NCBI GenBank assembly: GCA_016185945.1
Contig: JACPMR010000011.1
Location: 633-64,632 of the forward strand
DNA: 64,000 bases
Reading direction: 5' to 3'
DNA from: Candidatus Woesearchaeota archaeon
Lineage (GTDB): Archaea > Nanobdellota > Nanobdellia > Woesearchaeales > GW2011-AR4
Shown: piece after piece, positions 21,749-61,476 of the stretch
Numbering within the stretch: position 1 is the first letter of the stretch
Layout: each line of letters starts with the position of its first letter
The notes under the pieces: model-generated
Databases searched by the model: none
What the model was told of the DNA's origin: nothing
Seen by the model: the letters and a program-made list of their open reading frames with translations, nothing else
Program-made: the position numbers and the translations under genes

Positions 21749-21904
21749 AATTAAAACCCCCTTAAAGTTTCATTTCAATAACTTCTTTATATAAGTTTCG
21801 TATTTTAGGAATGGTAACGAATTATTCATAAAGGAAAGAGAATTCTGATATTTAAAATTTTCAAAAAACTGGCTCCCTAACATCTTTCCCAACTTTCATA
21901 GGGG

Positions 21905-22012
21905 ACACCGCCTCTGCAATTTGCACATGAACGCATGCTTTATAGTGCCTTCTGTAAAAGCTGGTCTCCTTTTTCACTTTTTAAATCAAAAGGACGCTCT
22001 CGTATTGGTTAA
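21905..22012 (+). repeat. Diverged copy of the GGGTGCCCCGCA...AAAGCAGGTTTCCT element plus an AAAGGACGCTCTCG module.
   Basis: ggggacaccgcctctgca...agtgccttctgtaaaagctggtctcct...aaaggacgctctcg aligns with 30066..30175 and 56693..56770. Confidence 0.4.
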
Positions 22013-22114
22013 ATTTTTATTGAATTTTATCGAAAATTGATATTTTAATATTTAACTTAATTAAACTTTATTATAAGCAACCTATTTAAATACTCTACCT
22101 ATACCAATAAAATC

Positions 22115-24763: not shown

Positions 24764-26266
24764 CTAACCCTTCACATTCCCCACGGGCTTCAATCCAACA
24801 ACAGGCATAGAAATTCCCGCCTCTGCAACCGCATTTATTACATCATTAATATTTTTGTATGCAAAACCAGCTTCTTCAGCCAACCCCGACATTGAGATTG
24901 CTTTCACGTAAATCCCTCTTTTCTCCATGTCTCTCTGCAACTGCTCGCCTCTGACTTGCCTTTTTGCAGCAGCCCTTGACATTGTACGTCCGCTCCCATG
25001 TGCCGTACTCCCGAAAGTCTCGTCCATTGCCTTTTGGGTTCCGACAAGCAAGAAACTTCCAGTTTCCATTGAGCCTCCTATTATTACAGGCTGCCCTGTT
25101 TCCTTGTAAAGTTTTGCAAGTTCAGGATGATGCGGGGGAAATGCCCGTGTGCTTCCTTTTCTGTGCACAACAACCTTTTTTTTGTGCCCGTCAATAACAT
25201 GCTCTTCAAGCTTTGCAATGTTATGCGCGACATCATAAACCATGTGCATCTCCAATTTTTCTGCTTCTGTCTTGAAAACTTTTGAGAATCCTTCCCTTAT
25301 CCTGTGCAAAATAACTTGCCTGTTAGCAAATGCCATATTGGCTGCGCACGCCATTGCCTTGTAATAATCCTGCCCTTCATTGCTCTGGAATGGAGCGCAT
25401 GCAAGCTCCCTGTCATAAACTTCAATGCCGTATTTTTTCATTGTTCCTTCAAAAATTCTTAAGTAGTCAGTCCCAATCTGATGCCCGAATCCTCTGGAGC
25501 CGCAATGCACCATAATAACAACCTGCTCTGGCTGGGTAATTCCAAATTTTTTTGCAAGTTCTTCGTCAAAAATGTTTTCTGCCTTTACAATCTGTATCTC
25601 AAGATAATGGTTGCCAGAGCCCAAAGTTCCTAATTGTTTAATCCCTCTTTCCATTGCCTTTGAGCTTACTTTCTCCGGCTCAGCCCAGTCAATCCTGCCA
25701 TAGCCTTCAGTTCTTTCCAAATCCTCTGTCCAGCCATAGCTGTTTTCAATACACCATTTTGAGCCATATGTCATTATTTCCTTGAATTGCGATCTGCTTG
25801 CATCCACAAATCCTCTTGAGCCGACACCGGCAGGAACTGTCCTGAACAAAGTGTCAACTAATTCCCTTAATTTTGGCTGTACTTCTTTGTAGGTTAGATT
25901 TGTTGTAACAAGGCGCATGCCGCAGTTGATATCAAACCCGACTAAGGTTTAAATTCCTCCGGGTGATATCACGCCAGTCTCAGCGTCAAAAGCTGCAACG
26001 CCGCCAATGGGAAAACCGTCAAGGGCTGAATAAGAGTTTTTACTTACTCAGAATCCCCAGTGCCCATCTGGCATGCAGAATGCATATTTCTGGATTCCTG
26101 GCAAACAAGCTACATTTGTTACCTGATTAAATACACCTTCATCCATTTCCCTAAGAAGTTTTTCGGTTGCATAAATACGTGCAGGAACAAGCATACCTTT
26201 CTTATAGCTCATAGGTATTTCCCACACAGTTTTATCTACCCGCTTCATAGGTGGAAGCTCTGCCAT
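24764..26266 (-). CDS. rtcB: RNA-splicing ligase RtcB. Frame interrupted by two small in-frame insertions, each introducing a stop codon (TGA at 26048..26050, TAA at 25949..25951). ORF-track fragments 26048..26266 and 24764..25918 are one frame.
   Basis: MPDGHWGF[*VSKNSYSALD]GFPIGGVAAFDAETGVISPGGI[*TLV]GFDINCGMRL... is colinear with the archaeal RtcB consensus once the bracketed 33-nt and 12-nt segments are removed. Confidence 0.85.
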
Positions 26267-26315
26267 AGTTCTTTACCTCCTTCTTGTTTAAATTGATTGT
26301 TTATTATTTTAATTT

Positions 26316-26477
26316 TTCAATCCGCCTTCGGCAAATGTTAGTGCGCCTCGGCATTCAAATGTTGAGGTTACTTTTTTGTACTTCTCCTCGGCGCAAATTT
26401 ATTGGGACTGTCAGCGACACTTTCCTGAGCTGGGTTCCCATTAATGCTTGCAGATGCTGGGAAGCGACGTGTTTGAA
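26316..26477. repeat. GC-rich MITE-like element, full-length copy.
   Basis: TTCAATCCGCCTTCGGCAAA...GCTTGCAGATGCTGGGAAGCGACGTGTTTGAA. Partner copy at 1996..2159 (inverted). Right-end module also at 32705..32733. Confidence 0.6.
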
Positions 26478-29260: not shown

Positions 29261-29773
29261 ATGTTGATAAGGCAAGCTACACAGCACGATATTGGCAGAT
29301 TAGTCGAAATTGACAGAGATGCTTATGGGCAAACAGGTGCTGACAAAAACTACTTTTCTAAAAAAATAAATTCTTTTCCTCAAGGAGTTTTAGTTGTTGA
29401 AGAAAACAAGCAAGTAACCGGCTTTATAGTTTTTGACATGCTTTCTGAAGGTAATATCCCAGAAGATTTTTGTGACATGCACATTTCAGAGCCAATCAAA
29501 GGAAAATGGATTTATATCGCTGCTTTTACCACAAAAACAAACTATAAGGACAAAGAATCAGATTCTAAATTGCTTTTGGCTGCTGAGAATGTTGCCAAGA
29601 AACTAGGCTGTGTTGAATCTTGCGTTCCATTGAGTATAGAGCATCCATACAAAAATAATGGTGTATTTGAGTTCTGGGAGATGAACGGCTACAAAAAAGA
29701 TGGAAAAATCAAATGGAAGGTAAATGAAGAGGAATTTGTCGAGTGTTGGTTTTATAGGAAAGAGTTAACTTGA
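29261..29773 (+). CDS. GNAT-family N-acetyltransferase.
   Basis: Fold-level resemblance (VTGFIVFD...IYIAAFTT). Confidence 0.5.
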   Translation: MLIRQATQHDIGRLVEIDRDAYGQTGADKNYFSKKINSFPQGVLVVEENKQVTGFIVFDMLSEGNIPEDFCDMHISEPIKGKWIYIAAFTTKTNYKDKESDSKLLLAAENVAKKLGCVESCVPLSIEHPYKNNGVFEFWEMNGYKKDGKIKWKVNEEEFVECWFYRKELT

Positions 29774-29816
29774 AACGAAACTATTTTAAATTATTGCTAG
29801 TTCTGTCTCTTTTAAT

Positions 29817-29989
29817 GGGGCAGTAGCTCAGCCTGGGTATTGAAGCAGGCTTAGCCGGGCTTTCCTTCAGGAAAGAGCACACAACTTTTCCAGTTGGCTT
29901 AAACGGCTGAAGACGGTATTTTGAGCAAAGAAATTTGCAATGAAATGTCCGATACCGTGGAGTCAGGAGTTCAAATCTCCTCTGCCCCA
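29817..29989 (+). tRNA. tRNA-Phe(GAA) with three introns: 36 nt in the D-loop (29838..29873), 22 nt in the anticodon-stem 5' strand (29883..29904), 41 nt in the anticodon-stem 3' strand (29915..29955). CCA not encoded.
   Basis: Joining the exons gives GGGGCAG-TA-GCTC-AGCCTGGGA-GAGC-A-CACGG-CTGAAGA-CCGTG-GAGTC-AGGAG-TTCAAAT-CTCCT-CTGCCCC-A, with all four stems pairing. ORF-track 29781..29990(-) is a spurious overlap. Confidence 0.75.
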
Positions 29990-30039
29990 CTCTTAATATT
30001 TTTGAATTTTTTTATTAATTATTTTAAATCAACCATCAT

Positions 30040-30230
30040 GCGACCCAATATCCGCACACTGAATTGGGTGCCCCGCAGTTATTGTTGCACTTGATTATGG
30101 AGGTAGATAGTGCCTGTAGCTAAAGCAGGTTTCCTTTATCACCTAAGAAATCTAAAGGACGCTCTCGTTATTGTTTGATTTATTTTTTATTTAATCAATC
30201 AATCTAAAAGTCGCTCTCGGGATTGATGGG
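30040..30230 (+). repeat. GC-rich repeat block: GCGACCCA...GGGTGCCCCGCA...AAAGCAGGTTTCCT element plus AAAGGACGCTCTCG and GTCGCTCTCGGGATTGA modules.
   Basis: Aligns with 56665..56770, 49393..49580 and 21905..22012. Confidence 0.45.
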
Positions 30231-30277
30231 TTTTTATGGTATTATAAGATTGATGTTATAAACTATTTAAATTATTT

Positions 30278-32485
30278 CTAAGCACTTAACGTAGCCGTCA
30301 ATATCCTTCCAGCAATTATGTTGAACAATAGCATCACAGCAGCGGATATGAAAACATAGAGTATTGTGCTTCTTATCAAATTGTTTCCAAGTTCAAATCT
30401 CTCGTTCAATTTATCCGAGCCGTTCTCAACGCCATTTGCAATAATAGTCAATATGAAAGTAATTTGCACCACATAAACACCGACTATTAGCTGAAAGTAA
30501 TAGGTTGGGATCCCCTCTCCAAACAAGCCCAGTATACTTGTAGGCGCTGCTGTGTCTGCTCCGCTGACAGACGCTGTGACCTGCTGCAATTGCCCGCTTA
30601 ATTTTCCAAGTATTGCTGTTATCATAGATGTTATTCCAATCACTACCCCTGCAATTGCAGGGGTCAAAAACTTAATCTGGGAGTGCATCGAAGCAATAAT
30701 GTCAGCCATCAAGTCCTTCAATCTTTCATTTACGCGATGAATTTCCTTAATATAACGTGCAACATTTGTCAATGCCTGCGCTGCAATCAATGGTCCTTTC
30801 TTAATCGCCTGCGTCAGGACTTTCATTGAGCTTTCAATCAGATTGCTGGGAAATGAAACCAAAGCGCCATGCATTGGGTCAAAAATCGCCTTTTCGATGC
30901 TCATTCCAAGTCTTCGTATATTCAAGCTTACCAATTGGAAAAAGCTTCCTGATACAGTTCCCTCCATAACATCAGCAACTTTGCCAACTGCTATCTCAAC
31001 AGGAAGATTATCGCCCAGTCTGTTGCCTAGCTGAAACAATGCATTTGCAAACTCAAGCTCAAGCTGCTTTGCCTTTTCCCTTATCTTTATGATGTTCTGC
31101 GATTTAAGCCTGTAATAAAACCCAAGCGCGACTCCCAACCCCAAAGGTATGAACAGGCTTGCAATAGCAGCCCCTAAGCCGTAAGGACCAAGCTCCTGGT
31201 TTGTTGTGGCGCTTGTCCTGTATTCCAAAAAGCAGTACCTCTGCTTGCAGGATGTTGTCAAATCTTCTCCTCCAAAACCAAAATCAGGAACGCCAATTGC
31301 ATGAAATATCAACGGGCTTGCTCCAATTAAAAACAATGCAGCGCAGACAAACACGCTAATAATTGCAGGAGTAACCTGCACTTCTTTTTTTCCGATTTTT
31401 ATCAGTATGTTCCTGTACTTCTTAAGTTCGGGATTTTCTTCTGCAATATCTGTATCTCCATAGCCAGTGGGCCTTGTTGAAAGAATATTCCTTCCCAAAT
31501 AATAAACAACCACAGTCAAAATAACATTGTAAATAACGGCAAGATGGTACCACTTCACGTCTTCCATAAAGCTCACGACAAGCGGCAAAATAACCAAGCC
31601 AAGAATCGGCAGGATAATTCCCAACATGTGCAGCATTGTAATGGGGTTCTGCAAATTGTGGGCGTAGTGCAGCATCTTTTCGTATGTTTCGTCAAGAATA
31701 ACGTCAAGCGCCTTGTCAAGCGCATTCAATCTTCTTGCCTCGTCTCCTTCATACAGAGAGCTTTCAATCAAGTGAAACGCCTCGATGAACTCAATATTCC
31801 ATTTCTTCCATGTATCAAGATAAAAGTCCAGAGACTCTTTTACAGAGGCGTATTTTTCAGTCTCGACATCCCAAAGCACTTTCTTCAAGTCAAGCGACAA
31901 AGGGGGCACAAGATGCTGGCTTGCAAACTCAATTGCCCTTTCAAGATTTGAGGTGTGCCTCATGTATGTAACAACATAAAAGATGCACAGCACCATCTGG
32001 TTGCTTGCCTTCAGGCGCCAGTTGTTGGCGATGAACTCGGGAACTCTTCCTAGAGGCTTTATAAGAATTACGGCACCAATTAAAAACAACAAAACAAAAA
32101 AGATGGATTGGAAAATTAAAAATGCAAGCAAAGAGCTGACTAAAGCCACAGCCAAAGGTATCAAAAGTGAGAATGAAACGGCTCCTGCTGGAGTGATGTT
32201 AAGATGCGTTATGTTGATTGATTCCTGCAAAACATCTGCGGTTTTTTTATCAGGCTTAATCTTAAGGATTTTTTCGCTTAAATTGCAGAGCTTCTCGTAC
32301 AAGCCCATGTGCTTTGGAAGAAATTCAGCCTTGAATTCCTGGTACTCCTTTGTTGTAGGCTGCTCCGGATGGCTTTCAAGCTTCGCTCCCAGCTCTTTCT
32401 CTAGGTGCTTCTTGTAAATCTCCATTAAAGACAACAACTTCTGCTTGTCTATTTCGGATGGCATTGTAGAAAAATTATTTTTCAC
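30278..32485 (-). CDS. Large polytopic membrane protein of the FlaJ/TadC/GspF platform family for archaeal type IV pilus-like machinery.
   Basis: 735 aa with multiple TM clusters separated by cytoplasmic helical domains; adjacent to the FlaI-like ATPase. Confidence 0.55.
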   Translation of the reverse strand: MKNNFSTMPSEIDKQKLLSLMEIYKKHLEKELGAKLESHPEQPTTKEYQEFKAEFLPKHMGLYEKLCNLSEKILKIKPDKKTADVLQESINITHLNITPAGAVSFSLLIPLAVALVSSLLAFLIFQSIFFVLLFLIGAVILIKPLGRVPEFIANNWRLKASNQMVLCIFYVVTYMRHTSNLERAIEFASQHLVPPLSLDLKKVLWDVETEKYASVKESLDFYLDTWKKWNIEFIEAFHLIESSLYEGDEARRLNALDKALDVILDETYEKMLHYAHNLQNPITMLHMLGIILPILGLVILPLVVSFMEDVKWYHLAVIYNVILTVVVYYLGRNILSTRPTGYGDTDIAEENPELKKYRNILIKIGKKEVQVTPAIISVFVCAALFLIGASPLIFHAIGVPDFGFGGEDLTTSCKQRYCFLEYRTSATTNQELGPYGLGAAIASLFIPLGLGVALGFYYRLKSQNIIKIREKAKQLELEFANALFQLGNRLGDNLPVEIAVGKVADVMEGTVSGSFFQLVSLNIRRLGMSIEKAIFDPMHGALVSFPSNLIESSMKVLTQAIKKGPLIAAQALTNVARYIKEIHRVNERLKDLMADIIASMHSQIKFLTPAIAGVVIGITSMITAILGKLSGQLQQVTASVSGADTAAPTSILGLFGEGIPTYYFQLIVGVYVVQITFILTIIANGVENGSDKLNERFELGNNLIRSTILYVFISAAVMLLFNIIAGRILTATLSA

Positions 32486-32526
32486 CTCTTTTTTTGATTT
32501 TATTTGAGTTTCCTAAATTCTAATTT

Positions 32527-32733
32527 TTTAATCCGCCTTCGGCAAAATTTATTGAATTATTTTTTATTTCTTCAATCCGTCGCTGTTGCTTGCGATTGAC
32601 ATGGCGAGTGAGTCTAGTGACATGTGAGCGAGTTCACTTCGCTCACTCGCATGCCACTCGAGCCTCACATGTCACTGCTCGCGTGCATGTCCCACATCAT
32701 GCTTGCAGATGCTGGGAAGCGAAGTTGTTTGAA
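32527..32733. repeat. GC-rich MITE-like element containing a long nested palindrome.
   Basis: TTAATCCGCCTTCGGCAAA ... gacatggcgagtgagtctagtgacatgtgagcgagttcacttcgctcactcgcatgccactcgagcctcacatgtcactg ... GCTTGCAGATGCTGGGAAGCGAAGTTGTTTGAA. Confidence 0.6.
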
Positions 32734-32802: not shown

Positions 32803-35106
32803 TCATAACTTGCTGTGAAAATCCATTTTCTTAACATGCCTTTTCAGCCATTCGTTCCAGTCAAAAAATATCCTTTTTGAGTCGAGAGTTCCAATCTCTT
32901 CCCTTATTTTTTCTGATATTTTATGGAACTGGTCATTGCTTTGTATTACAAAATCAGCTTCAAGAAGCCATGGCATGTTCTGCTTTGTTGCAAAATCGAC
33001 AAGCGCTTGCTTTGTATTAGCCCTAAGCATTACGTTGTCCCATACAGCATCCCAGTTGCCAGCCCATTCTTTTACATTGCCTGCAACTGCCTTAAGTATT
33101 TCAGAGTCGCCATTAATCAATTCCTCGCTTGCCTCTAAAACATCCTTTCTCGAGTCATATTTCATCAAATCAACAAAACCCTTTTCAACCAATGGATCTT
33201 GCTCCCAGTGCTTTCTTACCTCTGTAATTTGAGTGACTCTTCTCCATCTGTGCAGTCCGTCTGCGCTTCTTACGGGATTTGCAACCACAATAACATCAGT
33301 TGCCTTGAAGCTTGTCCTTGGAACTTGCAAATCATTAACAACCCTGTCAAAAACCCCGTATGGTGAATCACCATGAATAGTGCCTGCAACAACATTTGCC
33401 AACGCCCCCACTCTCATTGCCTCGTATAAAGCAAGCGCTTCTTTGCTTCTTATCTCTCCAATTATCAAGGCAGAATCCCCCATCCTTAAAGTTGTCCTTA
33501 TTCCTTCATCTGCTGGCACTTCAGCAGTGCCTTTTGTCAAGGCAGCAGCGACCTTCAGTGACTGAATGTTATAGCCAAGCTTTCTTAACGCAGATGTTGG
33601 TAATTCTAAAGTGTCTTCAATCGTAATCACTCTATACTTCCTCATCAATTCAACCAACACGGCTCCAAGCAAGCTGGTTTTGCCTGCGCTTCTTGTTCCT
33701 GCTATCAAAAGCGTCCTTGAGCCGTCAATCAAAAAGCTCATAATGCCTGCTGCCAATGGATTCATCATCTTGTTTTGTATGAACAAAGGCAATGTCCATG
33801 GCTTGTCTCGATGCCTTCTGAAGGCAAAAGCCAATCCGCTTGGATTCAGAGGAGGAGCAACGACAGCAATTCTTGAATTTGCGCCTGGAATTGCAAGCTC
33901 TGTATCCAAAATTGGATTTGCCTCATCCAATGGCCTGCCAGAAATCAACCTTAACTTAGACGCCCATGACTCTGCTTCTGGGGTCGTAGGTATGATGTTT
34001 GTCTTGCAATCACCATAGTCCTGATGAACTATAAACATGGGAGTTTCTCCAAGAGGCGAGTTTATTGTTATGTCCTGAACCTTTTCATCCTGCAAAAGAA
34101 CCTCTATCAATCCAAATCCGACTGTGTATCTTATAAGGATTTTAGCCATTTCATCGATGTCAGATGAGGACAATCTCAAGTTCCTGTAATTTGCAAGCTC
34201 GCTAATCAAGTCAGAGCCGATGTTATAGAACACCTGCCTCATCCTGTCCGGGTCAATGAATTCCTGTCTTGTCGGCTTGTGCTCTGTCATTATCTTCCTT
34301 GCAGTGTCAAGAATCTCATATTCCTCTTCGCTTAGCTTGAACTCCGGCGGAATCAAATGATACAAATATTGCACATTATCCGGAAGTTCAAATATGGTTA
34401 CTTCTGTATTCTTGTCAAGTGTGTAGCTGTCGATCTCCTCTCCTTCAGGCGGATAAGAAGCCATCAGCTTTGTGAACATAAAGTCAGGCCTTATGTCAGG
34501 AGTGAATATCCTCCTGTAAACACTTCTGTCGCCTAGCTTATATCCGGAGAGATATTGCTTTGCAGCTTCAATCAGCTTTGTTTTTTCCAGCAAGCTCATT
34601 AAGTATTGCAGAACAGCGATGTATTTCTTTGCGCATCCAATGTAATTTTCATCTAATGTCCTGTCAGTCTTCATTCTTTCGTCTCTGATTGTTCTCTTTA
34701 ATTCAACATACGCCCCTATGGGATCCCTTTTTAATAAATCAGAAGTAATATTTTGAGTTGTTGCATACCATTGCGCAGCCCATCTCGTGCATTTTGGGTC
34801 GGCAAGCAGATTGCCATATCCAAATAAGTCCCTTCTTTTTACTAATTGGGCATACAGCTTTGCAACTTCCTGCATCATCGATGTTTGGTTGTAATCATAC
34901 TCGTAATTTCTTTTTTGCGTATAAATAATCTTTGTAATGCCGCTTGTCTCTGCAAGAATATCAATAGTCCTTGACATGCTTACTGGATCATCTTCAAGGG
35001 AGGGTATTTGGGGGTATTGCTCTAAATCAATCATCAAAATTGTTTCCTCGCCTTCTTTTACAATGTCGTAGCTGAATGGTTTTTTTGTCTCGCCGAATAA
35101 TGCCAT
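32803..35106 (-). CDS. FlaI/PilB/VirB11-family secretion or pilus-assembly ATPase with a long N-terminal extension.
   Basis: Walker A IAGTRSAGKTSLLGA; Asp/His-box region ALIIGEIRSKEA. Confidence 0.8.
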   Translation of the reverse strand: MALFGETKKPFSYDIVKEGEETILMIDLEQYPQIPSLEDDPVSMSRTIDILAETSGITKIIYTQKRNYEYDYNQTSMMQEVAKLYAQLVKRRDLFGYGNLLADPKCTRWAAQWYATTQNITSDLLKRDPIGAYVELKRTIRDERMKTDRTLDENYIGCAKKYIAVLQYLMSLLEKTKLIEAAKQYLSGYKLGDRSVYRRIFTPDIRPDFMFTKLMASYPPEGEEIDSYTLDKNTEVTIFELPDNVQYLYHLIPPEFKLSEEEYEILDTARKIMTEHKPTRQEFIDPDRMRQVFYNIGSDLISELANYRNLRLSSSDIDEMAKILIRYTVGFGLIEVLLQDEKVQDITINSPLGETPMFIVHQDYGDCKTNIIPTTPEAESWASKLRLISGRPLDEANPILDTELAIPGANSRIAVVAPPLNPSGLAFAFRRHRDKPWTLPLFIQNKMMNPLAAGIMSFLIDGSRTLLIAGTRSAGKTSLLGAVLVELMRKYRVITIEDTLELPTSALRKLGYNIQSLKVAAALTKGTAEVPADEGIRTTLRMGDSALIIGEIRSKEALALYEAMRVGALANVVAGTIHGDSPYGVFDRVVNDLQVPRTSFKATDVIVVANPVRSADGLHRWRRVTQITEVRKHWEQDPLVEKGFVDLMKYDSRKDVLEASEELINGDSEILKAVAGNVKEWAGNWDAVWDNVMLRANTKQALVDFATKQNMPWLLEADFVIQSNDQFHKISEKIREEIGTLDSKRIFFDWNEWLKRHVKKMDFHSKL

Positions 35107-36237: not shown

Positions 36238-36380
36238 ATAATCGGTAATAAAAGGTTATTGTATTATTGTTTTTTGAAAAAATAATATTTATTGTAATGC
36301 CTCAATGTCTAAGGCAAGAAGAACTAACATATCAACTAAAGGATAACTTCAAATAAAACGTCATTAAAAAATAAACTAAT

Positions 36381-36462
36381 TTCAATCCGCTCGCTATGCT
36401 CGCAAAAGATAGCGCTCGGCAAAACTTTCCCTTTCAATCAGTTTTGCCTCGCCTATTCATTC
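36381..36462. repeat. Short GC-rich repeat copy (TTCAATCCGC...CGGCAAAAC module).
   Basis: ttcaatccgctcgctatgctcgcaaaagatagcgctcggcaaaac is nearly identical to 61393..61440. Confidence 0.5.
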
Positions 36463-40095: not shown

Positions 40096-40335
40096 TATAT
40101 TGTTGCGAATGGCAAGATAGCCGCCAAAAACAAAACATGATTATTACTTTTTGGTCGGCTATATTTCTATGAAAGGAAGGAGTTAGTTTTGGTTTTTCGT
40201 TGATTGAAAAAATAATTGTTTATTGAAATGCCTTATTGGCATCGGCAGAAACGAAGTTTCTGACGAACTTAAAAATGTTAGTTTTTAAGTAGGGCAAGAA
40301 GCTCAAGAACATTAAATTCGTTAAATAATTAAATT

Positions 40336-40390
40336 TTCAATCCGCCTGCGGCGCATGTTACTGCTCGGTGGCATTAACCGCCTCGCCTAT
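40336..40390. repeat. Short GC-rich repeat copy.
   Basis: TTCAATCCGCCTGCGGCGCATGTTACTGCTCGGTGGCATTAACCGCCTCGCC shares termini and motifs with 26316.. and 58569.. Confidence 0.45.
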
Positions 40391-40508
40391 ATATTAAAAA
40401 TCGAAGATTTTTAAAATCCCGAAAATCTCGCGATTTTCGCGACATAATCGAAAATAAAATGCTTCTTAACAATAAACTTTAAATAACATTCTTCAAATCC
40501 ATGATCTC

Positions 40509-42743
40509 ATGAAAAGAACCCAGACTTGCGGAGAATTGACAGATAAAGACGTTAACAAAAAAGTAACTTTATGCGGATGGTGCTCGACAAGAAGAGACCA
40601 TGGCGGGGTTATTTTTATCGACTTGAGAGACAGGTATGGAATAACGCAAGTAGTTTTTGATCCTTCTTTTAATCTTGAAGCGCATAAAATTGCTGAAAAA
40701 TTAGGCAGGGAAGATGTGATTCAAGTAAAAGGCATTGTAAAGCACAGAAAAAAGGGCATGGAAAATCCAAAGCTTAAAACAGGCGCTGTTGAAGTTTTTG
40801 TTGAGAAAATAGAAATTTTGAGCGAGTCAGAAGCCCCTCCAATGGAAATTGATGACAGGATTCTTACAAGCGAAGACACGCGCTTGAAGTACAGATATCT
40901 TGACTTGAGAAAGCCGGGAATGCAGCACAACATAATAACAAGGCACAAATTTGTCAAAGCTGTCAGGGATTATTTTGACAGCCTGGATTTTGTTGAAATT
41001 GAAACTCCTATTCTTGCAAAAAGCACTCCTGAAGGCGCTAGAGATTATCTTGTGCCGTCTAGAATTCATGCTGGAAAGTTTTATGCTCTGCCCCAAAGCC
41101 CTCAGATATTCAAGCAGCTTTTGATGGTCTCTGGCTTTGACAGGTACTTTCAGATTGCAAGATGCTTCAGAGATGAGGATTTAAGGGCTGACAGGCAGCC
41201 GGAATTCACTCAGATAGATGTAGAAATGAGCTTCGTTGAGGAAGATGATATAATGGAAATTGTTGAAGGCATGCTCAAGCACGTCTGGAGAATTTTGTTG
41301 AACAAAGACTTAAAAACGCCATTTCCAAAAATAACCTACAATGAGGCAATCAGCAAATATGGCTTGGACAAGCCCGATACAAGGTTTGAGCTTCATCTTG
41401 TTGATGTAACCGATGTTGTCAAAAACTCGAATTTTGAGGTTTTTACAAAGGCAATAAAGCAAAAAGGAATTGTAAAGTGCATAAATGCAAAGGGCTGCGC
41501 AAGCTTCAGCAGGACTGTTATAGAGGAATTGACAAGCTTTGTTGCAATTTATGGTTCAAAAGGGCTTGCATGGATGAAAGTTACAGAAAAAGGGCTTGAA
41601 AGCTCTATTGTGAAATTCTTTGACGAGAAAATACAAAAGGAATTGCTCAAGGCAGCAAATGCTAAGAAAGATGACTTGTTATTTTTTGTTGCTGACTCAA
41701 GCCATAAAGTTGTAAACGATTCACTTGGTTATTTAAGAATTGAGATTGCCAAAAGATTGAATCTTATTGACAATAATCACTTTAGTTTTGTGTGGGTTAC
41801 TGACTTTCCATTGGTTGATTGGAGCGAAGAAGAGCAGAAATATGTTGCAGTTCATCATCCTTTCACAAGCCCAAAAGACGAAGATATAGGGCTGCTTGAT
41901 AAATCTCCGGAAAAGGCAAGGGCAAAGGCATATGATATTGTTTTGAACGGCACTGAAATCGGAGGCGGCTCTATAAGAATCCATAGAAGCAATATCCAGT
42001 CAAAGATGTTTTCTGTCTTGGGTTTAAGCAAGGAAGAGGCAGAGCAGAAATTTGGATTCTTGCTCGAGGCATTCAAGTATGGCACTCCGCCTCATGGAGG
42101 CATTGCCTTGGGAGTTGACAGGATTGTTGCTATGATAACTGGAAATGAATCAATAAGAGAAGTAATTGCCTTTCCAAAGAACAAGGCAGCAGAGTCATTA
42201 ATGGATGAGGCGCCAAGTGCAGTAAGCGAGAAGCAATTAGAGGAATTACATATCAAGTTTGATTTTGTAAAAGAGCAAGTAAATGTTGTGTTCGGCAAGA
42301 TAAGGGATGTCTTGAACAAGGAAAAGATTGAGCATGAAGTGCTTGAGCACAAGCCAGTTTATACGAGTAAAGAAGCAGCTCAAGTAAGAGGCACAGAGCT
42401 GAAGCAGGGCTGCAAGGCACTAATTTGCAAGACAGAAGAGGGATTTATCCAAGCAGTTGTCTCTGGTGCAAAGGAGCTTGACATTGGAAAATTGCAGAAA
42501 CTGACTTTGTACAAGAAAATCGAGCTGGCAAATGCAAAGGAAGTAAGGCAGGCAACTGGATGCAACATTGGCTCTGTGCCGCCGTTTGGAAATTTGTTTA
42601 ATTTAAAAACTTACTTTGATAAGTCAGTTGTTGAGAATGATATAATTGCATTTAATGCAGGCACGCATACAAGAAGCATCAAGATGAAAGCGAAGGATTT
42701 GATTAAGGTTGTTAATCCTGTGGTTGGGGAGTTTGGTAAGTGA
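40509..42743 (+). CDS. aspS: Bacterial-type aspartyl-tRNA synthetase (with GAD insertion) fused to a C-terminal YbaK/ProX-type aminoacyl-tRNA deacylase domain.
   Basis: Class II motifs and the anticodon-binding OB fold (residues about 1-590). The C-terminal 150 aa align to YbaK. Confidence 0.85.
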   Translation: MKRTQTCGELTDKDVNKKVTLCGWCSTRRDHGGVIFIDLRDRYGITQVVFDPSFNLEAHKIAEKLGREDVIQVKGIVKHRKKGMENPKLKTGAVEVFVEKIEILSESEAPPMEIDDRILTSEDTRLKYRYLDLRKPGMQHNIITRHKFVKAVRDYFDSLDFVEIETPILAKSTPEGARDYLVPSRIHAGKFYALPQSPQIFKQLLMVSGFDRYFQIARCFRDEDLRADRQPEFTQIDVEMSFVEEDDIMEIVEGMLKHVWRILLNKDLKTPFPKITYNEAISKYGLDKPDTRFELHLVDVTDVVKNSNFEVFTKAIKQKGIVKCINAKGCASFSRTVIEELTSFVAIYGSKGLAWMKVTEKGLESSIVKFFDEKIQKELLKAANAKKDDLLFFVADSSHKVVNDSLGYLRIEIAKRLNLIDNNHFSFVWVTDFPLVDWSEEEQKYVAVHHPFTSPKDEDIGLLDKSPEKARAKAYDIVLNGTEIGGGSIRIHRSNIQSKMFSVLGLSKEEAEQKFGFLLEAFKYGTPPHGGIALGVDRIVAMITGNESIREVIAFPKNKAAESLMDEAPSAVSEKQLEELHIKFDFVKEQVNVVFGKIRDVLNKEKIEHEVLEHKPVYTSKEAAQVRGTELKQGCKALICKTEEGFIQAVVSGAKELDIGKLQKLTLYKKIELANAKEVRQATGCNIGSVPPFGNLFNLKTYFDKSVVENDIIAFNAGTHTRSIKMKAKDLIKVVNPVVGEFGK

Positions 42744-46619: not shown

Positions 46620-46689
46620 TTTAAAAAATTAGTGGATTCTTTAAAAAACAATAAATTAAAAATAAAACAAAAACTTAGAACGACTTTTT

Positions 46690-46830
46690 AAAGTAAGCGT
46701 GATAAAAGTGAACCGTTTTAGATGAATGTGCTATTTTTCATAACAATCCAGCACAACAGATGTGGCAGGTTTCCTATTATAGTCGGGAGAGAGCCTAGGA
46801 AGCCTCGGGATTGAAAAAATTTATTATTGA
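46690..46830. repeat. GC-rich repeat fragments (GCAGGTTTCCT and GGAAGCCTCGGGATTGAA modules).
   Basis: Matches module ends seen at 49595..49614 and 30124..30140. Confidence 0.35.
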
Positions 46831-46844
46831 AAACTTATCTATCT

Positions 46845-49226
46845 TTATTTTAACCTTAACTTAGCAGTCAAATCAGGCCATATCTGTTCGGGATTTACAC
46901 TAGTAAATGAGCTTCCTTGAGCAAGAACATAATAGTTATTGCCTTCCTTCTTGCATGAAACTCCTGATGCAACATCTTTTCTTGCCTCGCTGAACTTATT
47001 CGTAAAGCCGCATATGTCAGCGTCAAAACCAGAGTACTCAACAACCGCGTTCTTGAAATTCTTTCCTTCTATAGAGCCTTTGATTGTTTTGCCTGCCTGC
47101 TGTGATAAATAAAGTTTATCAAATTTCTTCATTCCCTTTACATAAGACTCGTCAAAAGGCGGGCTTGTTATTAATCTTTTGATTGAACTGATAATGCTTT
47201 GTATCAGGCTGCCGAAGAATGTTGTTGTTTCCTGCTCTGAAGGCACGGTTATTGCGCTTTGGCTGTAAATGAAGCTTTTCAGTCTTTTATTGTACCATAC
47301 TTTGTTTGTTGTGTCGCACGCATGATAGTTGCCGTCATCAATCAATGCTTTATCGCAGCTTGTGATGCCGAGTATGTTAAGGGCGGTTGCTGGCGCTTCT
47401 TCAAGGTTTTTGTTGATAGAGGTTGCTGCTGTTATTCTGCTGCCTGCTTTCAAAACGCAGAAATTATTAGTCTGTATATTTGAAAGTACGTCTGAAATAA
47501 GCTCGTTTGAATCAGTCAGATACTGCAGGTTGTTTAACGAATTTTCTCTTGCATCGCAGAACAATGTGTAATCTCCGCTCTTAAGTTTTAACAATTTCAG
47601 TGCCAGCAGCTTTGTCCTTGTAGTCCACAGCCCATTCTCACAATAATTGTCGTTCACATACTCTCCAGATTCGATGCATTGGTTTGTCTGCCCAAATACA
47701 CTTGAAAGGCATTGAGACTGCTTGGGGCAAAAGCCGGAAATATCCTCATCAGGTGTAAATTTCAAGGCTGAAGTTGTCCAGTTGCCGTCTATGCATCTTA
47801 ATCCATTGACCGGTTGCGCCAACGGCTTGTTTCTCTGATTTTCAGCGCATATTGTGCCATCCCAGCACTCATCTTGAGCGCAGCATTCTGCTGCAAGATT
47901 TGGATTTGCCACAGGGGCAAAGCTCAAGTGGCTTTTGTCGTTGCCATTTGTCAAAATCCATTTTTCTGTGAATGAGCAATAATAATTGTTCTCAGGGTCT
48001 TTAAAGCAATAATCGTGGTTTGTTATTAAAGGAACTCCTGACTTATCTGACAAGCCCAATAAGTTATCATTGTCCTTATTGAAATTTATCTTGTCAATTG
48101 CACAGCCATGGAATGAGCCCTGGTAGTTTATAACCGAGTCGTCTGTGCCTTTGACAACATCAATACTTCTCACAAATTCCTTGTTCCAGCAGCCTCCTAT
48201 CACACCGGCATCATTATAGTATTCGTTTGAATCGTCTGCCTCGCTGCAGCATTTTGTGCCAGTCCACTTGAAGCCTGCTTTCTCGCATGTTGACTTGTCC
48301 TTTGTGTCCAAATCTGTTGTAAATGTTTTGTCTGATGCGCAGTAATAAACTTTATTGCTGTAGTTTACCGATTGTCCTGCTGCCAATCTTTTGCCGTCTG
48401 TGCTTGACTTGCAGGAGCTGCTGCCGCAGCATTCAACAATTGATTCTTTGCCCTTTCCAGTGCACATAAACTCGTTGCCGCTTACTTTTGTCTGCCAGAA
48501 TGCACCATCGCAAGCTTTCCACGCGCTTCCATCTGCTATGTATTCCTTGTCAGCGCAACCAAGATATTTTATGTCGCCTTTCAACTCAGAAGACTGCATC
48601 CAGAATGGAGTTGTTCCTTCTGCATCAAGATGGCAAATTCCCCCTTTTGCCTGCAATGCACAATCAGTCTCGTCGTCTCCGCAACAGCCACCATCACTCC
48701 AGTCTCTTGAACCGGCATTGTTGCCAACTGGGCAGCTAGTGCACGAGACTGCACTCCAGTCTGGTTCGTCTTCTTTGTCATCTCCGCAGCATTTGCCTTG
48801 CTCATTGTCCCACACCCTTCTGCCTGAGTTGTCTCCTATCTTGCAGCTTGTGCAAAATAATTCCCTTTTATCAGGGTCGTCTTGCTCTATGCTGTCATCT
48901 CCGCAGCATTCCGCATCCCAAAAAGTGTCTTTTAAGCAAGCGCATGCCCTTTCATCAGAATCAGGCTCGAAAATACTTGTTCGTTTATAGTCCCCGCCAG
49001 GATAATAGCCGCCAAAGTTGTCTTTGCTCAAAGAACCTCCTGGAACAGGCCTTACGTCAGGGTTTGGCTCTGTGCCTTTTGGATAGCATCCAATCTGGGC
49101 AGAGCTTCCGCCGCCACCGCCGCAAGCAGCTATAAAAATAAGCAATGTCAAGCATGACAAATAGAAAATTGTTTTTCTTCTTATTTTTACCATCCTCTTT
49201 TTTGATATGTTATTTTTGTTATGCAT
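46845..49226 (-). CDS. Large secreted Cys-rich repeat protein, probable lipoprotein or surface protein.
   Basis: Signal peptide with lipobox-like IAACGGGGGSS. Recurrent CCGDD and SCTSC modules. 793 aa. Confidence 0.5.
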   Translation of the reverse strand: MHNKNNISKKRMVKIRRKTIFYLSCLTLLIFIAACGGGGGSSAQIGCYPKGTEPNPDVRPVPGGSLSKDNFGGYYPGGDYKRTSIFEPDSDERACACLKDTFWDAECCGDDSIEQDDPDKRELFCTSCKIGDNSGRRVWDNEQGKCCGDDKEDEPDWSAVSCTSCPVGNNAGSRDWSDGGCCGDDETDCALQAKGGICHLDAEGTTPFWMQSSELKGDIKYLGCADKEYIADGSAWKACDGAFWQTKVSGNEFMCTGKGKESIVECCGSSSCKSSTDGKRLAAGQSVNYSNKVYYCASDKTFTTDLDTKDKSTCEKAGFKWTGTKCCSEADDSNEYYNDAGVIGGCWNKEFVRSIDVVKGTDDSVINYQGSFHGCAIDKINFNKDNDNLLGLSDKSGVPLITNHDYCFKDPENNYYCSFTEKWILTNGNDKSHLSFAPVANPNLAAECCAQDECWDGTICAENQRNKPLAQPVNGLRCIDGNWTTSALKFTPDEDISGFCPKQSQCLSSVFGQTNQCIESGEYVNDNYCENGLWTTRTKLLALKLLKLKSGDYTLFCDARENSLNNLQYLTDSNELISDVLSNIQTNNFCVLKAGSRITAATSINKNLEEAPATALNILGITSCDKALIDDGNYHACDTTNKVWYNKRLKSFIYSQSAITVPSEQETTTFFGSLIQSIISSIKRLITSPPFDESYVKGMKKFDKLYLSQQAGKTIKGSIEGKNFKNAVVEYSGFDADICGFTNKFSEARKDVASGVSCKKEGNNYYVLAQGSSFTSVNPEQIWPDLTAKLRLK

Positions 49227-49382: not shown

Positions 49383-49614
49383 TTCAATCACGAGGCGACC
49401 CATCGACACAACCAAGTGAGTGACTTGTGAGCGAGTTCGCTGTTGCTTGCGAGAAAAGCTCGCAAACTCGCTTTTCAGGTCGAACGAAGCTCACTCGCAT
49501 GCCACTGGGTGCCCCGCAATAACAGAGGCACTTAAATGCAGCGATAAAGTGCAACATAAGAGGCTGTGGCTCCCTTATCACTAGGACATTGACAGGGAAG
49601 CCTTGGGGATTGAA
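49383..49614. repeat. Composite GC-rich repeat: TTCAATC terminus, GCGACCCA, a nested GAGCGAG palindrome, the GGGTGCCCCGCA element and a GGGGATTGAA terminus.
   Basis: Termini TTCAATCACG ... CCTTGGGGATTGAA form an imperfect terminal inverted repeat. Internal modules are shared with 30040.., 56655.. and 32590.. Confidence 0.6.
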
Positions 49615-49681
49615 TAAAAGAAGTTAATGAGTCAAATAAATAAACTTTAACAAAATATATAAAAACAGCCCAAGATTAGCC

Positions 49682-55692: not shown

Positions 55693-55803
55693 GCCAGGGT
55701 GGCAGAGTTCGGCTTAATGCGCTGGACTTAAGATCCAGATGACACTACCCGTGTCACGCGGGTTCAAAGTCATCATGGGATGCTGGAAATCCCGTCCCTG
55801 GCG
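55693..55803 (+). tRNA. tRNA-Leu(TAA) with an approximately 21-nt intron inside the T-loop (about 55769..55789).
   Basis: Acceptor GCCAGGG/CCCTGGC; anticodon arm CTGGA-CTTAAGA-TCCAG; variable arm TGACAC-TACCC-GTGTCA; T-stem GCGGG/CCCGT flanking TTCAAA[gtcatcatgggatgctggaaa]T. Confidence 0.7.
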
Positions 55804-55886
55804 CCGAAAAATATTGGATTTATAATTTAATGGGAAGGTGTAGTTTACAGAAAAGCTTATAATAAATCTTTTTATTCTTTATTTTA

Positions 55887-56539: not shown

Positions 56540-56654
56540 CCCTAGTTGCTATATAAGTAAAAGAGGTATATATAATTTTTGCATATGATATATATAGGTA
56601 TATAGGACTCAAGATAATAAATAACTTAACAGAATTAAATCTTAAATTTTTTTC

Positions 56655-56790
56655 AAAAACTAACAGGCGACCCAAGCACTGCTCGCTAGAATGGGTGCCC
56701 CGCAGTGCTTCTGGCGCTATAAACCATGACTTAAAGTGCCACTGCAAAAGCAGGTTTCCTCTATCATGCTTATATTCAGAGGAAGCTCTT
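56655..56790 (+). repeat. Copy of the GCGACCCA...GGGTGCCCCGCAG...AAAGCAGGTTTCCT element.
   Basis: Near-identical segments to 30066..30140. Internal complementarity between gcgacccaagcactg and cagtgcttctggcgc. Confidence 0.45.
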
Positions 56791-56855
56791 GTTATTGTTT
56801 GAATTTTGATTTATTGTTTCTTGAATTTAATTTTATTCTAATAAAAGATATAGAA

Positions 56856-58385
56856 TCATCCCAACTCACTAAACTCCATAACCACTTCTTCCTTTCCCTT
56901 TAATGTCTTTTTAACTACATCCTCAAAATAAGGAATGCTTATCGGAGTCACAAACCTTGCAAAATTGCTTGTTATGATTGCTTCTCCTATGTCAAGTGAT
57001 GCAATTGTCCTGTCGTCATCGCTTAAGTCCTGTGAGGCGCTCTCAATTATTGCCTGCCTTTCAGGCTTCATCTCAATTCCCAAAATTATTTTTGTGTTCA
57101 TATTTGCCAGTATTTCGCGAGGAATCAATGAAGGCAGTTGTGTTATTGCAGTCAATCCAACTTTGAACTTTCTTCCTTCCCTTGCAATCGTGGCAAATAT
57201 ATTTGGCCCTGCCTCAAGCACTTCTTTTCCTAAAACTCTTGGCGCTTCTTCAAGCACGATTGAAACAACCGGCTTTGAGTTAAGTAACCCATTCATTTTA
57301 TAATACTTATACTTGTTAAAAATCTCGTTTGCGATTAAGCTTCCAATCAATAATTCAACTGCGCCGGAAAAATTTGATGTGTCAACAATAACAATTCTTC
57401 CCTCCTCAAGATGTTTGCAAATATCACTAATTGTTGTAAACCCAGAATTAAGCTGAAATACTCCGTTGCAAAATAACTGATTGTTTGCAAACTCCAAGTC
57501 AAGAAGATAAAGCAGTCTTCTCCTCACAACAATCAATGTCTCTGCCCGAAAAGCACTTTCAATGCTTAATGGCTTCTCTAAAATTATCGCTTCTATCCAC
57601 TTATCGCCAAATTCCTTGTAGTACAGGCTCATCGCCTGCTTCTGCGCATCGCTGAAATCAACTACACCATCAAAATGATGTGGCTTTATGACGTCAAGAT
57701 TTATTCTTAGAGTGTTTGTCCCTATCGGTGCATTTTTTGACGTGTAATAAACAATGTTTTCCTTGATTGGATGCTCCTTTAATCCAATTTTGTTCCTTCC
57801 ATAATACTCATCATGCGGGTCCAAAACAAGAATGCCAAAATTCCTTCCAAAAGAGTTCCAAAGCAAATTAGAGACAAGCACGCTTTTGCCCCTTCCTGTT
57901 GTTCCGGCAATCAAAATATGGTGGGAAAAAACCTTTTCCCCGTCAAGATAAATCGGTACATCAAGCACTTTTGAGCCGCTTCTCAAGTTGCCAACAAACA
58001 AAGCATTTTTTGGCTTTGTTAAAAATGATAAATCATCCTCTTTTATCTCCCTTACTTCAGAAAACACATTCGGCAATGATTTGCTGACAATCGCATTCCT
58101 GTCTCTGATTGTAACTAATGACTTCATCATTGCAAGCATATAATTTCTCAAGTTCGCATCAAAAAGCTCAAAATCAGTTCCTTCCTCAAGCTTCATTCCC
58201 GAAATCATCTCAAGGTTCTGCTGGGATATTTGGCTTCCATAGATTAAGTCATAAACCTGCAGCAGGATTTTTCCATTTGGCGAGTCAGCAACAAGCAATT
58301 CTCCAATCTCAATCTCTGCTTCTGATTTCTGCCTTGCAATAATCTTGCCAAACTCCCCAGAAATAACCTGTCCCTTAATCAACAC
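56856..58385 (-). CDS. herA: HerA-type ATPase (FtsK/HerA superfamily, DUF87).
   Basis: Walker [14 protein letters not shown], an N-terminal HAS-barrel-like region and a C-terminal helical domain. Confidence 0.75.
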
Positions 58386-58568
58386 ATACCACCCAAAAGT
58401 AAAGAATCAAGTTTTGTATATAAAAGTTGCTGTTAAAAAAATATTTTTGAGTTTTTTGAATTTAAATTTTGATTAATGTTTATGCCCCAATGTCAAAAGC
58501 AAACAGTCAGAAATGTAAGAGCTAAAGGAAAACTTGAAAGAAAACATATTAATATAAAAATCGAATAA

Positions 58569-58710
58569 TTCAATCCGCTCGCTGTTGCATGCGAGGAAAG
58601 CTCTGTTGCTTGTGAGCGTGCTCACAAGCTCGCACGCATGTCGCATGCTCGCTTTCCATGTCGCTCGCAAATTTTACCCTCGCAAGGCATTAACCTTGCT
58701 CACTATATAT
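58569..58710. repeat. GC-rich repeat with the TTCAATCCGC terminus and GCATGCGAGG/CTCGCAAGC palindromic blocks.
   Basis: Shares the gcattaacc and ctcgc/gcgag modules with 40336.. and 61241.. Confidence 0.5.
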
Positions 58711-61240: not shown

Positions 61241-61476
61241 TCGAATGGTGAGCGAGGCGAACCTCGCATGTCACTGATTTTTGTCCAGTGACATGCGAGA
61301 GCTCGCTGTTGCTTGCGAGAACGCTCGCAAGCTCGCGTTCATATCTCGCTCGCTCAACTCTATAAGCATGAAATGCATTCTATAAACTAAAATTCAATCC
61401 GCTCGCTACGCTCGCATAAAATAGTGCTCGGCAAAAATTCTTCTGTCATTGAATTTTGCCTCGACTGTTTATTGAA
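61241..61476. repeat. Two adjacent GC-rich repeat units: a nested palindrome (61241..61370) and a TTCAATCCGC...CGGCAAAAA unit (61393..61476).
   Basis: tcagtgacatgcgag/ctcgcatgtcactga inverted repeats. Second unit nearly identical to 36381..36462. Confidence 0.55.

Follow-up and report, generated by a model that had tools for sequence, protein, structure and literature searches.

A GC-rich hairpin element of a woesearchaeotal genome and its probable place in a mosaic repeat family

We describe a GC-rich structured element of about 150 nt from a Candidatus Woesearchaeota archaeon (GenBank assembly GCA_016185945.1), flagged at position 56655 of a 64,000-nucleotide stretch of contig JACPMR010000011.1 (positions 633 to 64,632) that is hereafter called the window. 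The element is real, folds as predicted and occurs beyond chance. With a probability of roughly 0.55, we attribute it to a high-copy family of mosaic GC-rich hairpin repeats, mobile or recombining in an AT-rich DPANN (Woesearchaeota-like) genome and similar to REPINs, bacterial interspersed mosaic elements (BIMEs) or foldback miniature inverted-repeat transposable elements (MITEs). To the same degree, we favor seeing the flagged element as one architecture of this intergenic family ("class A") rather than as a clearly independent small-RNA gene. This reading follows from the density and mosaicism of the copies, their mirror-image arms, the use of one arm in two orientations, the nesting and exchange of modules, an insertion polymorphism, and kinship with bacterial MITEs. 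No transposase, RAYT or cas gene was found among the ORFs tested, so the manner of spread, the enzyme involved and any effect on transcripts are inferred.

Relatives of the element were collected through pattern scans of genomes and metagenomes, and these related loci, numbered with the prefix L, total about 440 kb. The genome scan, limited to one genome per species, recovered loci with the same element from low-GC archaeal metagenome-assembled genomes (MAGs), together with many bacterial matches. A stricter pattern applied to metagenomes gave 80 loci, of which about 50 were AT-rich archaeal contigs and about 30 were copies of a GC-rich bacterial element. The viral contigs scanned with the element pattern gave no match. 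Metagenome contigs with flanks 80-89% identical are syntenic with the window, and the repeat family is also present in MAGs labelled Woesearchaeota. A class-A covariance model trained on 20 class-A copies produced 89 matches in the window and 64 loci.

Structure and covariation of the element

The flagged copy occupies positions 56652-56807 of the plus strand. It opens with an A-rich 5′ flank, TTCAAAAACTAACAG (56652-56666), which is the inverted counterpart of the 3′ tail, and continues with three hairpins. The first, H1 (56667-56703, arm type alpha), is composed of a GCG/CGC outer helix, a GCCC 3′ bulge, and an ACCCA/UGGGU inner helix. The central hairpin H2, GGCGCU...AGUGCC (56713-56740), is supported by the fold and by covariation. 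H3 (56749-56787) is an inverted delta arm with an outer AGC/GCU helix, a 5′ bulge, and an inner UUUCCUCU/AGAGGAA helix. The 3′ tail CTTGTTATTGTTTGAA and then a T-rich run complete the copy (56788-56807).

An earlier note on this DNA had listed four copies, here called 21905 (21858-22018), 30040 (30026-30183), 49393 or 49395 (49383-49618) and 56655 (the flagged copy). All four match the covariance model, with 120.8 bits at 56653-56807, 111.5 at 30026-30183, 60.6 at 21858-22018, and 53.3 at 49487-49618. The count was too low, however, since at least 13 elements or modules lie in the 64 kb on both strands: seven class-A copies found by the model and six related class-B or GCGAG-rich elements.

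The sequence boxes proposed as common to the four copies were recovered in most of them. The first, GCGACCCA, occurs exactly three times, at 30040, 49395 and 56667, always on the plus strand (shuffle mean 0.47; none of 100 shuffles reached three). The second, GGGTGCCCCGCA, is exact at 30066, 49507 and 56693. Neither is found in the 21905 copy, which displays in their place the compensatory variant GGC-UCCCUA...UAGGGG-ACACC-GCC. The spacing of 15-25 nt given for the two boxes holds in two copies (17 nt each) but is stretched in the 49395 copy to 104 nt by a GC-rich hairpin module lying within the H1 loop. A third box, AAAGCAGGTTTCCT, is exact at 30122 and 56747 and has two mismatches at 21957, while the 49393 copy carries GAGGCTGTGGCTCCCTTATCA instead. 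Tails resembling GGACGCTCTCGTTATTG occur at 21992, 30157 and 56781, against an expected number of 0.09.

Selection for structure had been proposed from internal complementarity, and the 89-sequence alignment agrees with it, displaying a conserved secondary structure with compensatory changes. Standard pairs fill 76.3% of cells, compared with 66.2% in column shuffles, and the covariation score is 0.210, compared with 0.103 after shuffling (0 of 500 shuffles reached 0.210); as the alignment was fitted to the model, these figures lean towards structure. When the 3′ partners were slid by one to three columns as a control, the score was 0.035-0.079. All three hairpins are backed by covariation, with double compensatory changes in each.

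H1 spans about 37 nt and combines the outer helix GCG/CGC, a 4-nt 3′ bulge GCCC, and the inner helix ACCCA(U)/(A)UGGGU. It is paired in 98% of cells, and both of its helices change (CG to AU six times, GC to UA five times, CG to UA seven times). Within the window, its inner helix also takes the forms UUCCCA/UGGGAA, UUCCCU/AGGGAA, UCCCUA/UAGGGG and UUCCUA/UAGGAA, with the bulges CCCA, CCACA, ACACC and ACCU. In H2, paired in 80% of cells, GCAC/GUGC swaps with UUGC/GCAA and AUGC/GCAU, and H3 alternates among ACUUU/AAAGU, UCCUCU/AGAGGA, UCCCU/AGGGA and ACCUAU/AUAGGU. Of the two pairings that had been singled out, gcgacccaat with attgggtgc in the 30040 copy is the conserved H1 helix. The other, AAGCACUGC with GCAGUGCUU in the 56655 copy, is part of the minimum-energy fold of that copy, where 9 bp between the H1 loop and the sequence after GCCCC compete with H1; it is not conserved in 60 other copies, and we rejected it as a pseudoknot or alternative helix.

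No known RNA family accounts for the element. Rfam 15 at gathering thresholds gave no match in the window. Searches by E-value (E up to 10) over 29700-30300 and 56560-56860 returned noise and nothing relevant, and 47 related loci (DPANN, candidate phyla radiation (CPR), peat and other bacterial) contained only tRNAs and one group II intron fragment outside the element. The description of the element as structured and uncatalogued thus stands, since the compensatory changes are confirmed and no Rfam family matches. Inspection revealed no C/D or ACA boxes of the corresponding small RNAs (sRNAs). ARAGORN found no tRNA in the window, and the tRNA-like 3′ end at 29960-29992, outside the element, belongs to an upstream intron-containing tRNA, which disposes of a tRNA or split tRNA. 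A kink-turn was rejected because the CGAG...CGAG helices are symmetric tandem G-A motifs without a 3-nt bulge. The conserved G-U pairs at the base of H3 were dropped as proof of the plus strand since they vanish with mirror-image pairing (outer GCG/CGC with a 5′ bulge). Elements of the family measure 80-235 nt, are non-coding and multicopy, and contain only open reading frames (ORFs) of less than 60 aa that overlap the hairpins.

Inverted arms, mosaicism and turnover of the copies

A class-A unit is formed by two homologous, diverged arms in inverted orientation that flank the central hairpin H2, and each arm is a bulged hairpin. A common plan emerged when the left ends were compared with the reverse-complemented right ends. 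Read on its own strand, an arm starts with an A/T-rich end, CGAnn, an outer helix of 2-3 bp, and an inner helix of 5-7 bp with its loop. Then come a 3′ bulge of 4-5 nt that is rich in C, the strand that closes the outer helix, and a short linker into GCAC. Four arm types could be distinguished: alpha (GCG ACCCA..TGGGT GCCC CGC), beta (GGC TTCCCT..AGGGAA CCACA GCC), gamma (GCG ACTTT..AAAGT AAAC CGC) and delta (GCT TCCTCT..AGAGGA AACCT GC). The reverse complements of all class-A loci also match the class-A model, with 39.3, 27.9, 26.4, 23.5, 21.9 and 14.6 bits. The beta arm serves on the left in the copy at 6596 (6608-6649) and, inverted, on the right in the 49393 copy; these two instances are identical at 47 of 59 positions (80%), linker into H2 included. 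As the left and reverse-complemented right arms share one plan and beta is used both ways, a class-A element can be written as an arm, a central hairpin and a second, inverted arm. This organization is REPIN-like or foldback and is symmetric at the DNA level.

The ends of the family follow the same symmetry. The left consensus ..CGAnnGCGAC is mirrored by a right end that is the reverse complement of GUCGCnnUCG.., as illustrated by TTCAATCACGATGGCGAC and TTCAATCACGAGAGCGAC. We do not propose an RNA helix that closes the element by pairing the 5′ flank with the tail, as cognate and non-cognate pairs barely differ (end similarity p = 0.11 in one test and p = 0.03 in another).

The modules are combined as a mosaic. 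H1 units, right arms and class-B modules each occur alone, and GCGAG-rich hairpins are either nested in the H1 loop (49395 copy) or adjoin class-B modules. The nested GCGAG-rich module of the 49395 copy and its counterpart at 61.3 kb have the same orientation on the plus strand, whereas their hosts are opposite. Class-B elements consist of H1 or a variant of it and a long hairpin with a symmetric tandem G-A motif, GGCGAGGC...GCCGAGC. They also have a hairpin with a GAA triloop (GCCGAAGGC or GUCGCGAAGCGAC), an GGAUUGAAA tail, and the apical loop AAUGGCAGAAA, which is conserved. In some elements the end is formed by two tail modules with 22-30 nt between them, at 30153-30229 and 32522-32589 (minus strand) of the window and in L159, L180 and L171. 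The earlier note had left the choice between a module of a larger GC-rich repeat family and an independent non-coding RNA (ncRNA) gene family. The first option is favored, and the second is less likely, given that the modules are mosaic and reusable, appear in both orientations, alone or nested, and have no fixed promoter register or orientation preference.

Comparison of related loci revealed that copies are gained and altered. L137, with 89% identity to the window in its flanks, has a class-A element (1670-1831) between two convergent genes, and the window lacks this element. The window counterparts of these genes, at 8143-9588 (plus) and 9581-10396 (minus), have stop codons that overlap by 8 nt (9581-9588), while about 205 nt separate the genes on either side of the L137 element; the C-terminus of each product is conserved in the two genomes. 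This site is an insertion polymorphism, a single case. The L137 copy is 92.6% identical to that of L181 over 162 nt in unrelated flanks. Orthologous sites also differ in their modules. Between L077 and L162, with near-identical flanks, the H1 loop and H2 differ; between L027 and L175, also with near-identical flanks, the long hairpin differs; L159 has an alpha left arm where the orthologous window copy at 6596 has beta; and L174 holds a class-A element at the site of window class-B units. The polymorphism and these loci indicate that the family gains, loses and exchanges modules.

We propose that the family spreads and reshuffles at the DNA level through insertion, ectopic recombination or gene conversion between copies, and the nesting of modules. 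The feature under selection would be the bulged hairpin, which either strand can extrude, and it is probably the recognition site, in single-stranded nucleic acid, of some enzyme. Those units that are transcribed would fold into stable multi-hairpin RNAs, usually followed by an oligo-T tract.

Several observations weigh against this reading. The AT-rich junctions of the filled and empty L137/window sites allow no clear target-site duplication. The copies are mostly old, with no further DPANN pair exceeding 85% identity over 100 nt. No transposase or integrase was found among 20 window ORFs, and no transposase was found beside copies in the related loci, in a 2.5 kb insertion in L177, or between paired peat MITEs. 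The pairing of the 5′ flank with the tail reflects the inverted consensus of the whole family, not copy-specific covariation. Oligo-T tracts follow two thirds of the copies, as in RNA genes. Finally, the compensatory upkeep of the hairpins and the 20 invariant nucleotides of H1 in many MAGs point to purifying selection, for which a repeat that is purely selfish would have no need. Searches for partner elements were likewise negative: no long element bounded by family termini occurs in the related loci, no Y1 transposase or RAYT was detected among the ORFs tested in the window and related loci, GTAG is absent from the hairpin foot, and the window has no TnpB-like ORF (its ORFs of 384-390 aa are CorA, MetE-like and RtcB).

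DPANN genomes are very small, and here elements occupy about half of the intergenic regions, at about one per 5 kb. If they are REPIN- or BIME-like, we know of no earlier description of such a mosaic hairpin-repeat system from Archaea, and they would supply the streamlined genomes of symbionts with recombination and regulatory variation.

The H1 hairpin in bacteria and alternative explanations

H1 is not restricted to archaea. An identical 20-nt signature, GCGACCCA..TGGGTGCCCCGC, is held by the DPANN repeats, by mini-insertions beside CPR tRNA genes, and by at least two bacterial MITE families, those of Acidobacteria-type peat bacteria and of Longimicrobiales, which have unrelated terminal repeats. 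By a rough estimate, a 20-nt match in several unrelated repeat families would be far beyond chance. In the peat metagenome, the exact signature lies within a MITE of about 400 nt with 18-nt terminal inverted repeats TAGAGCGTTCCGCAAAAT and TA/CTAG-type flanks. Many near-identical copies of it occur beside unrelated bacterial genes (the GC-rich subset of L108-L187, e.g., L118:1220-1620 and L126:2870-3270), and it holds H1, sometimes twice, and an GGCGAGGACU...AGUCC helix. Directly downstream of one peat MITE is a group II intron D1-D4 fragment (RF01999, 74.8 bits, L130:3563-3659) with no reverse-transcriptase ORF nearby; as this match is beyond the MITE end, a group II intron was rejected as an identity for the element.

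The second MITE family, found in Longimicrobiales/Gemmatimonadota MAGs (L044, L061, L063, L075, L079, L092 and L097), measures 250-330 nt and has terminal repeats TAGGAGGGTGATCGGAAAGGGG and IS5-like CTAG/CTAA flanks. H1 lies just inside its left repeat, a CCGAAGG hairpin is also present, and internal modules are present or absent between copies. In CPR bacteria, H1 resides in insertions of 70-130 nt that adjoin tRNA genes and are bounded by duplicated tRNA 3′ ends. A Nomurabacteria MAG (L043:3816-4560) has three consecutive tRNA genes; behind each lie an insertion and a second copy of the tRNA 3′ end, which starts from the T-loop, with a trailer of 20-57 nt. Similar cases are L083, L116, L125 and L127. 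One of these insertions carries the exact H1 on the strand opposite the tRNAs, while ACGAGCG..GGCGAG motifs and a terminal GTGAC are common to the remaining ones. These insertions resemble miniature integrative elements with tRNA T-loops as their targets. The same flanks also border shorter palindromes that occur in multiple copies in Acidobacteria, Planctomycetes, Syntrophorhabdales and other groups, and the bacterial H1-carrying elements have no Rfam match.

The presence of H1 in bacterial MITEs and beside CPR tRNA genes suggests that a recognition module, and presumably an enzyme with it, has been passed between the two domains or retained in both within groundwater and soil communities. 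Tentatively, and with rather low confidence, we suggest that H1 (GCG-ACCCA...UGGGU-GCCC-CGC) and the GA-containing helices are a cross-domain conserved functional module marking an undescribed system. If so, the system could rest on a transposase or recombinase of a new, hairpin-specific class, or on a new catalytic or protein-recruiting RNA that travels as mobile cargo in both domains. The conservation of H1 across domains is the most interesting loose end of the analysis.

A possible but, in our judgment, unlikely explanation is that each element is a trans-acting sRNA gene of an independent family, with an A/T-rich upstream promoter, a start near GCGAC, the H1-H2-H3 fold and an oligo-T end, in which the conserved H1 would serve as a protein-binding handle and the variable parts would confer specificity. 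The three covarying helices agree with this, as do the conserved AAUGGCAGAAA loops of the class-B hairpins. Runs of at least five T follow the 3′ end of 28 of 42 copies (background 15%), and runs of at least five A precede 18 of 42 (background 11%). Upstream of 61 copies, positions -18 to -3 form an almost G-free A/T stretch. TATA-like A/T stretches precede copies, and in some subfamilies a box of this kind falls near -26 to -18. At -30 to -22, the place expected for an archaeal TATA box, information content stays at or below 0.16 bit. Copies are found in all intergenic types and in either orientation, as expected of self-contained genes: by crude gene calls, tandem genes flank 22 of them (9 in sense, 13 in antisense), divergent genes 11 and convergent genes 4 (background 204, 62 and 67). 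The context fits self-contained units or insertion wherever room exists. Meanwhile, modules occur solo, nested and in both orientations, and loops and helices are swapped between orthologous copies. A single-stranded RNA has no obvious need for a 3′ hairpin that mirrors the 5′ hairpin on the opposite strand. We also know of no sRNA family as dense as one element per 5 kb, which counts against this explanation.

It is improbable that the elements are cis-acting bidirectional terminators, insulators or 3′-end stabilizers, as E. coli repetitive extragenic palindromes (REPs) are, retained to separate packed genes. The A- and T-tracts that flank the GC-rich hairpins would suit this role, in L112 and L136 solo H1 units sit directly against the stop codons of convergent genes, and the L137 insertion lies between convergent genes. 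Against it, convergent regions are not enriched (4 of 37 versus 20% in the background), and the copies are, if anything, more common in divergent promoter regions (11 of 37 versus 19%). The lack of any preference for orientation, gene context or 3′ untranslated regions argues against a dedicated terminator, and gene context leaves this role unsupported. Termination in archaea needs oligo-T and not hairpins, a further point against it, and the bacterial H1 homologues have no flanking U-tracts.

Equally improbable is that H1 and the GA-rich helices are the core of a widespread functional RNA, either a self-cleaving ribozyme or an RNA-processing handle, carried as mobile cargo in Bacteria and Archaea. 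The shared signature speaks for it, as do the tandem G-A and GAA-loop motifs held in common, and motif order seems permuted between CPR and DPANN (with GUCGCUC ahead of H1 in the CPR copies and behind it in those of DPANN). Yet no Rfam ribozyme matched even with E up to 10, the invariant bases are mostly helical rather than junctional, and both stem and bulge are altered in DPANN H1 variants. The use of one module in both orientations argues for recognition at the level of DNA over that of RNA.

The weakest candidate holds that the tails are degenerate solitary type I-B/I-C CRISPR repeats, with RNAs cut by a Cas6/Cas5d-type nuclease in a crRNA-like or CreA-like manner; this is very improbable, as Tandem Repeats Finder in the window and k-mer spacing in the related loci found no array, and none of the window ORFs tested is a cas gene. 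Its appeal lies in the resemblance of GUCGCUCUCGGGAUUGA and GUCGCGAAGCGAC-GGAUUGAAAAU to type I-C repeats such as GTCGCTCTCCTCACGGAGAGCGTGGATTGAAAT (PMC4521832) and in the double tails of some copies, each module of which resembles both ends of a type I-C repeat (GUCGCUCUC...GGAUUGA). This likeness was noticed post hoc, and the double-tail "spacers" are AT-rich and similar between copies.

Elements of the window and comparison with known systems

Besides the flagged copy, the plus strand of the window carries four class-A copies. The one at 30026-30183 is composed of an alpha arm, H2 and an inverted arm, and is followed by a second tail module, AAAAGTCGCTCTCGGGATTGATGG (30205-30229; direct-repeat families D2 and D3). 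It lies 48 nt downstream of a tRNA gene (29817-29992, plus) that is interrupted, at a non-canonical position, by a large intron and consists of a 5′ part GGGGCAGTAGCTCAGCCTGGGTA, about 120 nt, and then GGAGTTCAAATCTCCTCTGCCCCA; ARAGORN does not call this gene, and Rfam gives only a weak match to the tmRNA clan. Another tRNA-like sequence, a tRNA-Leu with a T-loop insert at about 55693-55806 (plus), is a reading by eye without an ARAGORN call. The copy at 21858-22018 has the divergent left arm GGC UCCCUA..UAGGGG ACACC GCC. That at 49383-49618 has an alpha left arm and an inverted beta right arm, and the GCGAG-rich hairpin module of about 100 nt in its H1 loop (about 49403-49505) recurs at 61294-61321 and 58570-58597 (family D13). 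The copy at 6596-6755 (52.8 bits) pairs its beta left arm with an inverted gamma right arm. On the minus strand are a class-A copy with the left arm GGC UUCCUA..UAGGAA ACCU GCC (46659-46817, 65.2 bits) and a partial one formed by a solo right arm and tail, AAAAGCGGTTTACTTT..AAAGTCGCTCTCGGGATTGATTTT (11407-11488, 36.3 bits).

The six related elements are all on the minus strand, and four carry the class-B module hairpin. The element at 26311-26468 joins the H1 variant GUCGC UUCCCA..UGGGAA CCCA GC to GA-containing hairpins, an GCCGAAGGC hairpin and an GGATTGAAAAATT tail, and that at 32522-32724 combines the same variant with a large GCGAG-rich insert and two GGATTGAA/GGATTAAA tails. Solo class-B modules, all without H1, lie at 36378-36456 (the GGCGAGGC..GCCGAGC hairpin and GCGAGCGGATTGAAATT; family D5), at 40332-40443 (preceded by an GUCGCGAAAAUCGCGAG hairpin; family D4), and at 61389-61465, the last followed by a GCGAG-rich hairpin module (61283-61357; families D5 and D13; whole element 61283-61465). 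The element at 58564-58705 (family D13) has GCGAG-rich hairpins and an GGATTGAATTATT tail but neither H1 nor the GGCGAGGC..GCCGAGC hairpin.

The window has a G+C content of 33-43%, dense coding and archaeal gene content. Its products include HerA beside an Mre11-type phosphoesterase, RtcB, RNase HII, the glycine-cleavage T protein and GatA. The RtcB ORF (24764-25918, minus) aligns to its Pfam profile from position 52 only, which may reflect a miscalled start or an unusual N-terminus; about 400 nt upstream of this ORF is a class-B element. An aspartyl-tRNA synthetase (40509-42743, plus) combines a bacterial-type GAD insertion with a C-terminal YbaK-like aminoacyl-tRNA editing domain, a fusion unusual in archaea. 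Two large proteins of 735 and 793 aa (30278-32485 and 46845-49226, both minus) have no Pfam match and no mutual similarity. The 735-aa protein looks membrane-embedded and is downstream of a 767-aa T2SSE-type ATPase (32803-35106, minus); this region may be a pilus or secretion locus.

Among known systems, the REPs, BIMEs and REPINs of E. coli and Pseudomonas are also short GC-rich imperfect palindromes with high intergenic copy number and inverted doublets around a spacer. In both cases, a few hairpin types are combined mosaically in alternating orientation and kept up by compensatory changes. The imperfect palindromic hairpins of 20-40 nt in inverted doublets that characterize REPs and REPINs find their counterpart in H1, at about 37 nt, and in a right arm that is an inverted H1-type hairpin. 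The present host is archaeal, however, the units are larger (about 150 nt with three hairpins), and the 5′ GTAG signature is replaced by a C-rich 3′ bulge between GC outer and CCC/GGG inner helices. No RAYT (Y1 HUH transposase) was identified here, and the elements are not kept out of divergent promoter regions.

MITEs and modular repeats, such as the Correia/NEMIS elements of Neisseria, BOX of S. pneumoniae, the SM MITEs of Sulfolobus and the haloarchaeal PATEs, are likewise non-coding, shorter than 500 bp, abundant and modular. They share with our family insertion polymorphism (one case here) and, at the level of its consensus ends, a terminal inverted similarity (..CGAnnGCGAC / GUCGCnnUCG..), and bona fide bacterial MITEs contain the homologous H1 as cargo. 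They differ in that no target-site duplication or partner transposase is defined here, the copies are old and diverged, internal hairpins are selected, and the arms are distinct types, not one inverted repeat. In IS200/IS605 elements, TnpB omega-RNAs and PATEs, the left-end and right-end hairpins have the same orientation, whereas the arms described here are inverted.

Among type I-B/I-C CRISPR repeats, those of type I-C are matched at both ends by the 5′ GUCGC(UCUC) and 3′ GGAUUGAAA(U) of the tails. Here, in contrast, there are no arrays, unique spacers or nearby cas genes, and the repeat hairpin is absent or has shrunk to a GAA triloop. The Rfam families considered (tRNAs, C/D and H/ACA sRNAs, ribozymes, HEARO/omega RNAs and the cobalamin riboswitch) resemble the element, itself a structured GC-rich island in AT-rich DNA, and scans based on GC content or structure will mistake the islands of this repeat family for ncRNA genes.

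The family is also reminiscent of the GC clusters of yeast mitochondria, Rickettsia palindromic elements and the repetitive hairpin elements (RHEs) of sponge mitochondria (PMC2800124), in which GC-rich modules invade an AT-rich compact genome and nest within one another. Those sequences are unrelated to ours, and the present family is set apart by its two-arm architecture and by a hairpin signature that it has in common with free-living bacteria.

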